Source: Anaeromyxobacteraceae bacterium (GTDB lineage: Bacteria; Myxococcota; Myxococcia; Myxococcales; Anaeromyxobacteraceae). Taken from it: DNA of 64,000 bases. Positions 26,838-31,623 of this stretch are shown piece by piece. The stretch is from assembly GCA_047602405.1 (NCBI GenBank), contig JASGHJ010000002.1, positions 3,616,001 to 3,680,000 on the forward strand, given 5' to 3'. A program made the position numbers and the translations under genes. Within the stretch, counting starts at the first letter, position 1; each line of letters starts with the position of its first letter. Under the pieces are notes generated by a model. It was not told the DNA's origin. It did no database searches and saw only the letters and a list, made by a program, of their open reading frames with translations.

Positions 26838-28512
26838 ATGGCTTTGGCTTCAAGCCCGGCGAACCCTGGAACCGAGAGCAGCGGCATCACTCGTGACGAG
26901 GTCCGCGTCATCTTCGCGTCCTCCCTCGGCACCGTCTTCGAGTGGTACGACTTCTACCTGTACGGCTCGCTGGCCGCGATCATCGCGAAGCAGTTCTTCT
27001 CCTCCCTCTCCGAGGCGAACGCGTTCATCTTCGCGCTCCTCTCGTTCTCGGCTGGCTTCGCGGTCCGCCCGTTCGGCGCCATCGTGTTCGGGCGCATCGG
27101 CGACCTGATCGGTCGCAAGTACACCTTCCTCGTCACCATCATGATCATGGGCCTCTCGACCACGGTCGTGGGCCTGTTGCCGGGCTACGCGACCATCGGG
27201 ATCGCGGCGCCGATCATCCTCATCGCCCTGCGCCTCCTCCAGGGCCTCGCGCTCGGCGGCGAGTACGGCGGCGCGGCGACCTACGTCGCCGAGCACGCGC
27301 CGCACGGCAAGCGCGGCCTCTTCACCGCGTGGATCCAGACGACCGCGACGGTGGGCCTCTTCATCTCCCTCCTCGTCATCTACGTCTGCCGCGCGACGAT
27401 GGGCCCCAAGTTCGACGAGTGGGGCTGGCGCATCCCGTTCCTCATCTCCCTCCTCCTCCTCATGATCTCCGTCTACATCCGGCTCCAGCTGCAGGAGTCG
27501 CCGGTGTTCAAGCGGATGAAGGCGGAGGGCAAGGGCTCGAAGGCTCCGCTGACCGAGTCGTTCCTCCGGTGGGGCAACCTCAAGATCGTGCTCCTCGTCG
27601 CTCTTCGGCGGCGTCGCCGGCCAGGCGGTGGTCTGGTACACGGGCATGTTCTACGAGCTCTTCTTCCTCACGCAGACCCTCAAGGTCGACGCGCAGACCG
27701 CGAACGTGTGGGTCGTCATCGCGCTCGTCCTCGCGACGCCGTTCTTCATCCTCTTCGGCTGGCTCTCCGACAAGATCGGCCGCAAGTGGATCATCATGGC
27801 GGGCTGCCTCATCGCCGCGCTGTCCTACCACTGGATCTTCCGTGAGCTGACCCACGCGGCGAACCCGGCCATCGAGGAGGCCGCGGCGAAGAACCCGATC
27901 GTCGTGACCGCGGATCCCGCGGAGTGCAGCTTCCAGTTCGACCCGGTCGGCGGCGCGCTGAAGTTCCGCAGCTCGTGCGACGTGGCGAAGACCTGGCTCG
28001 GCAACAAGCGCATCCCCTACGTGAACGCCGCGGCCGCGGCGGGCACGACCGCCTCCGTGAAGATCGGCGAGACGGTCATCTCGTCCTTCGACGGGCGCCC
28101 GATGGCGGGCCCGGACTTCAAGGCGAAGAGCGGCGAGTTCGACAAGGCGATGGCCGGCGCGGTCGCGGCGGCGGGTTACCCCGCGAAGGCGGATCCCACG
28201 CGCTTCAACGCGCCGATGGTGATCTTCCTCCTGTGGGTCCTCGCCGTGTACGTGACCATCGTGTACGGCCCGATCGCCGCCTGGCTCGTCGAGCTCTTCC
28301 CGACGCGCATCCGCTACACGTCGATGTCGCTGCCGTACCACATCGGCAACGGCTGGTTCGGCGGCTTCCTGCCCCCGATCGCGTTCGCCATGGTGGCCGC
28401 GTCCGGCGACATCTACTACGGCCTCTGGTACCCGATCGGCGTCGCGCTCATGACCTTCGTGATCGGCTCGCTGTTCATGCCGGAAACGAAGGACCGCGAC
28501 ATCCACGCGTAG
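26838..28512 (+). CDS. MHS-family MFS transporter; +1 frameshift at ~27598
   Basis: ASSLGTVFEWYDF, RPFGAIVFGRIGD, RLLQGLALGGEYGGA, WGWRIPF; second frame VWYTG, ELFPTRIRYTSMSLPYH. Confidence 0.9.
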
Positions 28513-28547: not shown

Positions 28548-28590
28548 CCGCCCCCGCCCGGAGAGTCCGGGCGGGGGCGGTACTCTTTTG
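28548..28590 (+). terminator. Probable intrinsic terminator
   Basis: 15-bp stem CCGCCCCCGCCCGGA/TCCGGGCGGGGGCGG followed by TACTCTTTT. Confidence 0.7.
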
Positions 28591-28593
28591 GGA

Positions 28594-28820
28594 GGGATCG
28601 GGATCGAGATCGAGATCGGGATCGAGATCGGGATCGGGATCGGGATCGGGATCTGGGATCGGGATCGGGATCGGGATCTGGGATCGGGATCGAGATGGGG
28701 ATCGGGATCGGGAGTCGCGATCTGTCCCACATCCCGACTCCCACATCCCGACTCCCACATCCCGACTCCCACATCCCGACTCCCACATCCCGATCCCAGG
28801 TCCCGATCCCGATCGCGATC
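28594..28820. repeat. Microsatellite block: (GGGATC/GAGATC)n, then (CCCACAT-CCCGACT)n, then (TCCCGA)n
   Basis: Read directly from the sequence. Confidence 0.92.
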
Positions 28821-28850
28821 CGCCTCACGTGGATGAGGGGCTGTCTCCGG

Positions 28851-28983
28851 CCTTTCGATTGGGGGCTGCGTCTGGTGGGACGGCGCACGTTTCGCGCCGG
28901 GCCACCGCTCGTCGCGCTCGACCCTGGGCCCGTCACGAAACCTGCGCCGGGAGGTGGGGCAGACGCAGCCCCCAACCGAAAGG
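28851..28983 (+). ncRNA. Candidate structured 5' leader (rod-like hairpin), copy 1
   Basis: 28851-28874 pairs with 28960-28983 (23/24 bp); inner GGCGCA/TGCGCC, GTTTC/GAAAC, CGGGCC/GGCCCG; homologous to 29738-29871. Confidence 0.65.
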
Positions 28984-28992
28984 AACCTCCCG

Positions 28993-29343
28993 ATGTCTTC
29001 CTCCTCCATCTCCTGCACCCCCACCTTCCACGCCTACGCCGTCGCCATCCAGCTCGCGAGAGCCGTGCGTTCCGTCATCCCGCTCGTCGCCCGCCACGAT
29101 CCCTCGCTCGCAGACCAGCTCCGCCGTGCGGTCACCTCCGTTCCGCTGAACGTCGCCGAGGGCAACCGCCGCGCGGGTAAGGACCGCCCTCACCACTTCC
29201 GCGTCGCGCTCGGGTCGGCCTCCGAGGTCCAGGCGTGCCTCGACGTGGCCGAGGCACTCGGGTATCTCGCCTGCGAGGCCGTGCAGCCGGCCCTCGCGCC
29301 CGCGGATCGCGTGCAGCGGCTGCTCCGCGGGCTCACCCGGTGA
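28993..29343 (+). CDS. Four helix bundle protein (23S rRNA IVP / TIGR02436-like)
   Basis: LADQLRRAVTSVPLNVAEG..R...FRVALGSASEV...L..AEALGY; AAGGA RBS. Confidence 0.9.
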   Translation: MSSSSISCTPTFHAYAVAIQLARAVRSVIPLVARHDPSLADQLRRAVTSVPLNVAEGNRRAGKDRPHHFRVALGSASEVQACLDVAEALGYLACEAVQPALAPADRVQRLLRGLTR

Positions 29344-29350
29344 GGCCGGT

Positions 29351-29379
29351 CCGGGCGGGGCCACCCCGGCCCCGCCCGG
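29351..29379. terminator. GC hairpin between convergent genes
   Basis: Perfect 12-bp stem CCGGGCGGGGCC/GGCCCCGCCCGG. Confidence 0.55.
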
Positions 29380-29386
29380 CAGGCGA

Positions 29387-29728
29387 CTACGCCGCCCGCG
29401 GCGCCGTGAGGCGCCAGAGCATGCCGAGGAGGCGATCGCAGGCGCGGAGGGCAGGCTCCGCGTCGGCGGAGGAAACGTAGCCCCACGCCAGGGCGACGTG
29501 GAGCGCCGCCCGGACCTCGTCCGCGCTGCCGGCGGCGATGCGGAAGGAGTGGAGGCGATCCTTGCCCACGCGCCGGTTGCCCTCCGCGAGGTTGAGCGGG
29601 ATGGACGACGCCGCGCGGGAGAGCTGATCGGCGAGCGAGGCGTCGCGCCGCGCGAGCGCGCCGCGAAGGTCGCGGAGAGAGGCGATGACGGCGAGGGCGA
29701 CGTCGTACGCGATGAAGGTGGAGGACAT
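29387..29728 (-). CDS. Four helix bundle protein (23S rRNA IVP / TIGR02436-like), paralog
   Basis: LADQLSRAASSIPLNLAEGNRR...FRIAAGSADEV...ALAWGY; AAGGAG RBS. Confidence 0.9.
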   Translation of the reverse strand: MSSTFIAYDVALAVIASLRDLRGALARRDASLADQLSRAASSIPLNLAEGNRRVGKDRLHSFRIAAGSADEVRAALHVALAWGYVSSADAEPALRACDRLLGMLWRLTAPRAA

Positions 29729-29737
29729 GGAGAGGCT

Positions 29738-29871
29738 CCTTTCGGCTGTGGGCTGCGTCTGCCCCCTTCCCGGCGCAGGTTTCATGACGGGCCCCGGGAC
29801 CGAGCGAACGCGAGCGGTGGCCCGGCAGGAAACGTGCGCCGTCCAAGCAGACGCAGCCCACAGCCGCAAGG
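29738..29871 (-). ncRNA. Candidate structured 5' leader (rod-like hairpin), copy 2
   Basis: 24/25-bp outer stem with compensatory changes relative to copy 1; same inner helices. Confidence 0.65.
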
Positions 29872-29962
29872 AGGCCGGCGACCGCCCAATCACAAGAGTG
29901 ACGGCCCCCTCACCCGCCAGCGGGAACATTCACTCCGAGTCGGGCAGTCCGGGTCTGCCCCC

Positions 29963-30051
29963 CCTCCGCCTCCGTCTCCGTCTCCGTCTCCGCCTCCGCC
30001 TCCGCCTCCGCCTCCGCCTCCGCCTCCGCCTCCGCCTCCGCCTCCGTCTCC
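29963..30051. repeat. (CTCCGC/CTCCGT)n hexamer microsatellite
   Basis: About 14 tandem hexamers, read directly. Confidence 0.92.
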
Positions 30052-31606: not shown

Positions 31607-31623
31607 TGCACGTGGCATGCCCG
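31607..31623 (-). promoter_or_regulatory. Candidate sigma54 -24/-12 promoter for amtB
   Basis: Minus strand GGGCATGCCACGTGCA (GG-N10-GC) about 85 nt upstream of the start; amtB is classically Ntr/sigma54-controlled. Confidence 0.5.

Follow-up and report, generated by a model that had tools for sequence, protein, structure and literature searches.

Two facing Avd-like genes in a mobile cassette of an Anaeromyxobacteraceae bacterium, each behind a hairpin that may act as a single-stranded-DNA sigma54 promoter

We analysed a 64,000-nt stretch of DNA (the window) of an Anaeromyxobacteraceae bacterium (assembly GCA_047602405.1, contig JASGHJ010000002.1, positions 3,616,001 to 3,680,000; the host genome is G000 and its contigs are C1 and C2), and we focused on a cassette of about 1.05 kb between a major facilitator superfamily (MFS) transporter gene and amtB. 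A first-pass annotation had described two facing paralogous four-helix-bundle genes here, each behind a conserved hairpin leader, and the gene pair was borne out: genes A and B (Table 1) are members of TIGR02436/PF05635 and are about 52% identical to each other. Both exceed the curated cut-off; against the family models they gave E-values of 5.5e-19 and 2.3e-17 in a first profile search and of 6.3e-19 and 9.7e-17 in a second. The AlphaFold model of gene B (pLDDT 94.5) has the four-helix fold and resembles Xcc0516 (2gsc) and BT_0352 (2rld) with TM-scores of 0.81-0.85, and Avd, the accessory protein of diversity-generating retroelements (DGRs; PDB 4dwl, 8ub7), with TM-scores of 0.73-0.79 at 10-12% identity. 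PF05635 is tied to Avd in PMC10053308 and mentioned in cas loci in PMC3936711, and Xcc0516 is a pentamer according to PMC4990558. Across all cassette gene pairs compared, dN/dS is 0.06-0.44, and the cassette genes are under purifying selection. The likeness to Avd weakly suggests that the protein is most likely a nucleic-acid-binding ring that helps single-stranded intermediates. The short hairpin between the two stop codons is probably a shared terminator of both genes.

Each gene follows a long hairpin. A repeat search found inverted arms at 28851-28874 and 28960-28983 in hairpin A (24 nt, 96%) and at 29736-29762 and 29847-29873 in hairpin B (27 nt, 96%); the folding z-scores are -4.84 and -7.37, and none of 200 shuffles folded equally well. 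The inner helices described earlier, and the Shine-Dalgarno (SD) sequence in the 3' arm, are present in the sequence and in the leader alignment, and the 3' arm covers the SD or the first codons in every case. When we aligned 29 leaders from 7 genomes, we found that 97.3% of 955 base-pair cells pair and that 80 cells are changed on both sides, a count reached by 0 of 500 shuffles (the sequences are related, and this is not a probability). Change on both sides occurs in 9 of the 33 pairs, and controls in which the arms were slid pair at 33-49%. The claim of a conserved, covarying leader hairpin thus holds, and the covariation argues that the stem structure is under selection, as had been proposed. 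The proposed tight link with the four-helix-bundle genes is also confirmed within G000, where all 8 hairpins lie at the 8 cassette gene starts; an ordinary miniature inverted-repeat element or repetitive extragenic palindrome (REP) was rejected, as the hairpin family in this genome is confined to those starts. Rfam gave no match at the gathering score in the window, and at E<=0.5 a search of 10 loci returned nothing meaningful, with sub-threshold miRNA and tRNA matches only. A comparison of the four cassette copies and the relative G010 revealed no conserved promoter upstream of the hairpin.

In sigma54 promoters, the conserved GG lies at -25/-24 and the GC at -13/-12 in the numbering used here (papers differ by one base), and base -22 is read on the template strand. 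Each inner stem carries two inverted sigma54-like (-24/-12) boxes: the 3' arm reads YGTCAYG-N4-CTGC towards the gene, and the 5' arm reads outward as YGGCGCG-N4-GTGC in hairpin A and as YGGCAGG-N4-GTGC in hairpin B. In most hairpins the outward box has kept GG and lost the A at -22. We collected 63 distinct hairpins directly before a four-helix-bundle gene, most of them retrieved by a pattern that fixes GT, and found the gene-facing/outward combinations GTCA/GGCG in 55, GTCA/GGCA in 4, GGCA/GGCG in 1 and the flipped arrangement in 3, so that the asymmetry is oriented to the gene in 60 of 63. Of the flipped hairpins, two belong to a single back-to-back pair, and the third is directed at a different SD/ATG. 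In the 20 hairpins found by protein or with -24/-22 left free, the same counts are 16, 3, 1 and 0, and none has the consensus on both arms. As a side observation, one back-to-back pair of hairpin and four-helix-bundle gene lies around a hexamer tract (L369, G296 C1:36487-36826).

Related loci carry the same boxes in other settings. Seven of 11 hairpin-less four-helix-bundle relatives have a plain GG-N10-GC box 12-14 nt before the ATG. In a second cassette clade (G023, G022, G014, G012 and others) the hairpins are shorter, and either keep this core or have an outward spacer one base too short. A second GT-box repeat family in G000, which contains no gene and mostly consists of two hairpins facing each other 300-450 nt apart, has an outward spacer of 7 nt, three bases too long. 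The outward box is therefore spoilt in three ways (base, short spacer, long spacer), and a fold would accommodate any of them as a mismatch or a bulge. A G at -15 as a further spoiler was dropped, as ordinary G000 boxes have C 6, G 5 and T 4 times at this position. In the second clade (L078, L080, L102-L115), a separate, perfect stem of about 20 bp buries the SD and the ATG and has a conserved GGYGAAAGGAG-like loop; like stems stand before an ArdC-N gene (L293) and a DUF2958 gene (L280). G000 carries rpoN and 48 PF00158 matches. Wild-type sigma54 favours GG and the R456L mutant favours GT (PMC12096077); R455 and R456 recognise the CTGGC non-template sequence in PMC9770992, which there specifies the sequence by its strand without showing tolerance of a mismatched partner.

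To follow the hairpin beyond this family, we used a two-arm pattern that leaves four spacer bases free. It gave 39 matches in 14 of 401 genomes of the phylum (13 in the family including G000 and 1 outside), with none for the reversed control, and at least 126 matches in metagenome and viral loci. The free spacer bases pair at 230 of 312 positions (74%), as compared to 34.1 +/- 2.5% in 2000 partner shuffles, with 42 different spacers. As the spacers were left free in the search and are nevertheless complementary, these data suggest that the fold is selected. By titled records, genuine hairpins occur in Polyangiaceae, Thermoanaerobaculia and Verrucomicrobiota, and 2 of 151 genomes of one other phylum carry one. 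None of 25 actinobacterial chance loci passed the pairing filter; viral contigs gave 1 and 9 stretches, mostly chance. A loose one-arm pattern run on all genomes was discarded as mostly chance, with at least 17 matches beside a four-helix-bundle gene among 121 loci.

Among the matches listed, 102 distinct environmental hairpins are followed by a four-helix-bundle gene (15), a DUF559-type gene (22) or something else (65); this last group includes the ArdC-N and DUF2958 genes named above, IS481 (L306) and ISL3 ends (L278, L300). At four loci (L243, L268, L273, L292) we observed the hairpin flanked by small genes within cassette-like arrays; one has an attC-like end. All 22 DUF559-type leaders place the ATG 10-13 nt downstream of the GC (the allowed range was 5-25) and lack an SD. 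In G000, 13 of 30 ordinary GG boxes are followed by a start codon at 10-16 nt, as compared to 7 of 58 and 6 of 45 in controls with wrong spacers. Since the DUF559 leaders share the leaderless geometry of these ordinary boxes, transcription of genes A and B is predicted to start at the +1 positions of Table 1, inside the 3' arm.

The mismatches that the stems tolerate may hint at the strand that folds. The 63 outer stems contain isolated A.C mismatches, which read as G.T on the template strand, in 14 contexts, as against 3 contexts with G.T (p 0.013); in the separate SD hairpins of the second clade the ratio is 7:4. When folded as DNA, the template strand is better in 8 of 8 hairpins, by 5.3-9.3 kcal/mol (hairpin A, -58.2 vs -50.4 kcal/mol for the sense strand; hairpin B, -60.8 vs -55.5 kcal/mol), partly because of the fixed mismatches themselves. 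The evidence leans towards the template strand, short of proof.

We found four copies of the cassette in G000 that are 88-90% identical. One site, between a selA-like gene and a response regulator (E3), lacks the cassette in 21 of 30 loci and carries it in G000 and G010; the other 7 are uninformative. A second (E4) is clean in G010, without tracts, and a third (E2) holds the tract alone there; at two insertion sites of G010, G000 has only short hexamer palindromes. The interval between the MFS gene and amtB, suggested earlier for an empty-site check, is uninformative, as this gene order occurs only in G000 and G010 among the 30 loci. With multiple copies and empty orthologous sites, the cassette is mobile, mechanism aside. 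The first-pass suggestion of a small mobile unit is thus supported. The ends run into variable hexamer tracts in which neither fixed ends nor a target duplication can be resolved, and the window cassette lacks the features of an insertion sequence (IS) or miniature element (terminal inverted repeats, target duplication, transposase). The B genes of G000 are 95.6-97.0% identical among themselves and 80-83% identical to the same-site G010 copy, whose flanks are 92-95% identical, which suggests homogenisation or replacement among copies. Candidates for a mobiliser are the seven RAYT-like (REP-associated tyrosine transposase) genes of G000, IS1182-type transposases, or recombination between tracts. 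The flanks of two G010 copies (L032, L035) map far apart in G000, suggesting rearrangement at the cassette or mis-assembly. Across the genus, the protein is present in 24 of 37 genomes and facing pairs, judged by coordinates, in 13 of 37.

Taken together, these observations are best accounted for, at a probability of roughly 0.55, by a transposase-less mobile cassette of two Avd-like paralogues, each of which would lie behind a single-stranded-DNA hairpin promoter read by sigma54. Observed directly are the boxes, their polarity, the covariation, the mobility and the purifying selection. In duplex DNA neither box would work well and the genes would be silent, and RNA reading through from host genes would fold the outer stem over the SD. 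When the template strand becomes single-stranded it would fold, with the outward box supplying the non-template GG and the gene-facing box the template side, and the folded hybrid would present a complete -24/-12 duplex aimed at the gene; an unpaired loop would come next, spanning roughly -7 to -1. The transcript would start inside the 3' arm; it would therefore lack the 5' arm, leaving the SD free. With the two genes facing each other, exposure of either strand would drive one of them. Triggering would probably come from the uptake or transfer of DNA, from replication gaps, or from the cassette's own single-stranded intermediate. SD masking, as described in the first-pass annotation, is thus probably real only for read-through RNA and would not apply to RNA from the predicted own start. 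That annotation had also held that a location upstream of where transcription begins would count against a leader; with the predicted start, the 5' two-thirds of the hairpin would lie upstream of it.

Several observations weigh against this proposal. The need for an activator, together with an unfavourable G after the GC, is its weak link: sigma54 needs an AAA+ activator, bypass mutants alone start without one, and these in turn require a bubble opened beforehand (PMC7057263); no site for an activator was identified at the hairpins, where none was sought; and G, reported as poor for activity (PMC10083551), follows the GC in 46 of 63 gene-facing boxes, although it is also present in 3 of 15 ordinary boxes of G000. 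Single-stranding of a chromosomal copy would be an assumed step. GC-ward mutation and the constraint on the 3' arm confound the strand test; a per-site control gave 24/274 vs 0/35 (p 0.09), the spacer count of 12:5 is not significant, and when folded as RNA the sense and antisense strands tie at 4:4. The outward box is a full consensus in 4 hairpins, and the SD/ATG hairpin of the second clade would remain within the predicted transcript. As for distribution, the hairpin is found in 0 of 201 genomes of one alphaproteobacterial class and beside 0 of 5 plasmid ardC/DUF2958 genes, and the two findings on gene-less hairpins given in the next paragraph count here as well. Plasmid DNA searches with three hairpin regions returned nothing relevant.

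The hairpin might instead be a DNA site for mobile life and no gene promoter, which we consider unlikely. Either sigma54-RNA polymerase or another protein would bind or prime the folded strand, as Frpo, according to the title of a cited paper, also primes replication, or the mismatches would tell a transposase or recombinase that acts in trans (RAYT-like, integrase) which strand to select. Such a site would explain why facing GT-box hairpin pairs without a gene occur at about 10 loci of G000 and why no recognised gene follows 65 of the 102 environmental hairpins listed, many of these loci being short; it also agrees with the hairpins in ISL3, IS481 and IS1182 ends and cassette-like arrays and with the seven RAYT-like genes. 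However, a promoter would be expected to show the fixed polarity to the gene and the leaderless-start geometry seen here, the hairpin sits inside and not at the IS1182 ends, and no cleavage motif or target duplication was resolved. Both roles could coexist, in that the hairpins of the gene-less pairs may also prime or mark single-stranded intermediates.

A further alternative, the model of the first-pass annotation, is an RNA on the sense strand, whether a cis-acting leader that masks the SD, a substrate of RNase III or an RNA cognate to the protein; the conserved mismatches would then form a protein-binding loop and the likeness to sigma54 boxes would be incidental. That the SD or first codons always lie under the 3' arm, that the sense RNA folds as strongly as its z-scores say, that the second clade has its own SD/ATG hairpin, that Avd relatives belong to a ribonucleoprotein according to structure titles and that RNase III cuts the stems of intervening sequences in rRNA (PMC4990558) all fit this idea. 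Nevertheless, sense-strand G.U pairs occupy 3 of 955 cells, as compared to the 80 double changes, A.C mismatches outnumber G.T, the same core precedes unrelated proteins, hairpin-less relatives have an intact box at the same distance from the ATG, and the copies conserve no upstream promoter. As the invariant core is a sigma54-like box pair, we do not favour the RNA leader and regard it as improbable, a little more so than the mobile site. Least probable to us is an ordinary duplex sigma54 promoter duplicated in inverted form, in which the GT box would be weak or orthogonal, the outward box would drive antisense RNA or a transposase and the fold would insulate the gene from read-through. The outward box does point to the transposase in the IS1182-type element, and GG is consensus in the 4 outward boxes noted above and in some gene-facing boxes of the second clade, but a duplex promoter leaves unexplained why free spacers are complementary while -24/-22 are kept mismatched. 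In addition, YGGCACG-N4-TGC is enriched in the non-coding DNA of G000 (25/45) and YGGCGCG is not (20/186), by crude gene calls.

If the single-stranded-DNA sigma54 promoter is real, it would mean that chromosomal selfish genes sense strand state, and would offer a first condition in which to look for PF05635 proteins being expressed and acting. Its design makes predictions at the level of single bases (GT to GG, -22 G to A, and arm swaps). More tentatively, and in our judgement with odds a little below even, split sigma54 promoters may be widespread strand-state switches, silent as duplex and completed by folding of the template strand, that serve small selfish genes (four-helix-bundle, DUF559 and ArdC-type) as well as IS ends in Myxococcota, Acidobacteriota and Verrucomicrobiota. 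The facing pair would then be a two-strand sensor that expresses the Avd-like protein whenever the locus is single-stranded, and the large orphan family PF05635 would be tied to single-stranded DNA events. The cited papers describe single-strand promoters with -35/-10 boxes that lie in plasmid leading regions, and a sigma54 version would be unexpected because sigma54 normally cannot start without an activator. In the literature searched, where subscription journals are sparse and supplementary motif catalogues fall outside, we found no description of the hairpin or of a sigma54 single-strand promoter.

Several repeats and genes surround the cassettes. Tandem-repeat tracts flank all five loci (four cassettes and a ninth PF05635 gene) and are not cassette-specific, as Tandem Repeats Finder (TRF) lists 70 long tracts in G000. 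The ninth gene (C1:1972306-1973204) has no hairpin; it has a plain sigma54-like box, lies inside inverted hexamer tracts and occupies the same site in G010. The GGNTGAGGGG motif does precede both leaders of the window, as had been noted, yet it is no part of the leader, being missing at 2 of 8 leaders in G000 and occurring without a cassette near C1:368383. The seven RAYT-like Y1 genes lie at C2:3486236, 3137513, 3257163, 2524792, 3727468 and 582551 and at C1:2222233, and in two of them a plain sigma54-like box stands 13-15 nt ahead of the start. A GTAG at the junctions as a RAYT mark was set aside: it is present at 9 of 20 tract-followed gene ends and at 1309 of 5625 overall, a weak signal within a general G skew. 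At the 20 gene ends before hexamer tracts, the last 60 coding bases have a G skew of 0.20 as compared to 0.03 overall. The window contains no reverse transcriptase (RT) match, in agreement with the first-pass annotation, and a DGR or retron was dropped on this ground. Elsewhere in G000 there are 8 RVT_1 matches, seven of them with the same score and frame length (C1:439597, 557811, 2073934; C2:769786, 1212582, 1713502, 1787451), which are probably a recently spread retroelement. The MFS transporter gene (26838-28512) is broken into two overlapping frames by a frameshift or an assembly error, and a sigma54-like box GGGCATG-N4-GTGC lies upstream of amtB (31608-31622, minus strand).

Table 1. Features of the cassette and its surroundings (window positions), with cassette copies and gene-less hairpin loci elsewhere in G000 (contig positions)
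Feature	Position	Strand	Remarks
Terminator-like GC hairpin and T run	28548..28589	+	After the MFS gene, on the host side of the left junction; kept at this site in G010
Left hexamer/heptamer tract (GGGATC; TCCCGAC)	28594..28812	.	Partly self-complementary; unit and length differ in G010
GGNTGAGGGG motif	28830..28845	+	Remnant of a separate REP-like repeat, outside the hairpin
Hairpin A, 133 nt	28851..28983	-	Proposed folding strand: - (gene A template)
Outward box, hairpin A (CGGCGCG-N4-GTGC)	28885..28899	-	GG intact, -22 G instead of A
Gene-facing box, hairpin A (CGTCACG-N4-CTGC)	28931..28945	+	GT for GG; predicted +1 near 28957
Shine-Dalgarno-like AAAGGA	28979..28984	+	In the 3' arm of the outer stem; nearly invariant across aligned leaders
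Gene A	28993..29343	+	Four-helix-bundle protein PF05635/TIGR02436, 116 aa; dN/dS <0.45 in all pairs
12-bp hairpin between both stop codons	29351..29379	.	Kept in all four copies and G010
Gene B	29387..29728	-	Four-helix-bundle protein, 113 aa; model resembles Xcc0516 and DGR Avd
Hairpin B, 134 nt	29738..29871	+	Proposed folding strand: + (gene B template)
Gene-facing box, hairpin B (CGTCATG-N4-CTGC)	29775..29789	-	GT for GG; predicted +1 near 29763
Outward box, hairpin B (CGGCAGG-N4-GTGC)	29823..29837	+	GG intact, -21 off consensus
REP-like repeat (GTGACGGCCCCCTCACCCGCC...)	29899..29940	.	Beside other copies and also alone
Right hexamer tract (CCTCCG)	29963..30051	.	G-rich on the - strand; TRF
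Cassette copies in G000	C2:3644851-3645873; C2:7576-8636; C1:316531-317547; C1:2167016-2168091		The first is the window copy
Gene-less loci in G000	C2:123817-124276, 278193-279529, 639376-639699, 1207793-1208340, 2325534-2325882, 2589616-2590040, 3114827-3115250, 3323162-3323627; C1:1564586-1564747		

Among known systems, the cassette is not an intervening sequence of rRNA, a DGR, an IS or a known Rfam family. The 23S rRNA intervening sequences (Coxiella S23p; PMC4990558) share the protein family, complementary arms and short tandem repeats near the start, but here the elements lie outside rRNA, the open reading frame follows the hairpin and is not in its loop, and the genes form facing pairs under purifying selection; identity with them was rejected on the lack of an Rfam match in the window and the position of the reading frame. 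Avd and Xcc0516 share the four-helix fold with genes A and B; the cassette differs from Avd loci in having no RT in the window and in the low identity of the protein, and template and variable repeats were not searched. An IS1182-family element of G051 (L096:1990-4348, 2.35 kb, 3 copies) has the features of an IS and carries the same hairpin with one four-helix-bundle gene, facing away from the transposase, whereas the window cassette has two genes and neither transposase nor terminal repeats; two copies of the G051 element also stand back to back around a 2-kb insert. REP, REPtron and TIRtron systems (PMC3733652) share extragenic palindromes downstream of genes and RAYT-like genes in the genome, but the hairpins here are much longer, bear promoter boxes and genes, and number only 8 in this family; the accessible text of PMC3733652 names neither Anaeromyxobacter nor any Myxococc- taxon.

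Enhancer-dependent sigma54 promoters, as described in PMC9770992, PMC10083551, PMC7057263 and PMC12096077, share YGGCAC-N5-TGC with strict spacing, and the host has rpoN and many activators; a start about 12 nt after the GC, as in those promoters, is predicted here and would fit all 22 leaderless DUF559-type starts. They differ in that neither arm here normally has the full consensus and no enhancer is identified: the gene-facing box has GT in 59 of 63 hairpins, and GG would be restored only in the folded hybrid. The accessible text of PMC12672017 has no occurrence of 'sigma54' or 'rpon', and that of PMC11541004 none of 'sigma'. The closest likeness is to Frpo and ssi (F, ColIb-P9; pESBL classes 1-3; PMC9849209, PMC12672017, PMC11541004), which are described as long imperfect hairpins that rebuild promoter boxes; Frpo folds on single-stranded DNA and is turned off on conversion to duplex (PMC9849209). 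As judged from sequence alone, a folded template strand would rebuild boxes here too, upstream of genes that in one homologous locus (L293) include an ArdC-type leading gene. The described elements have -35/-10 boxes and lie in conjugative leading regions, whereas ours span 40-135 nt, stand on both strands of cassettes between ordinary chromosomal genes, and have invariant columns that spell -24/-12 (no sigma70 scan was made). The cassette would thus work like Frpo/ssi, minus the sigma70 boxes and the leading region.

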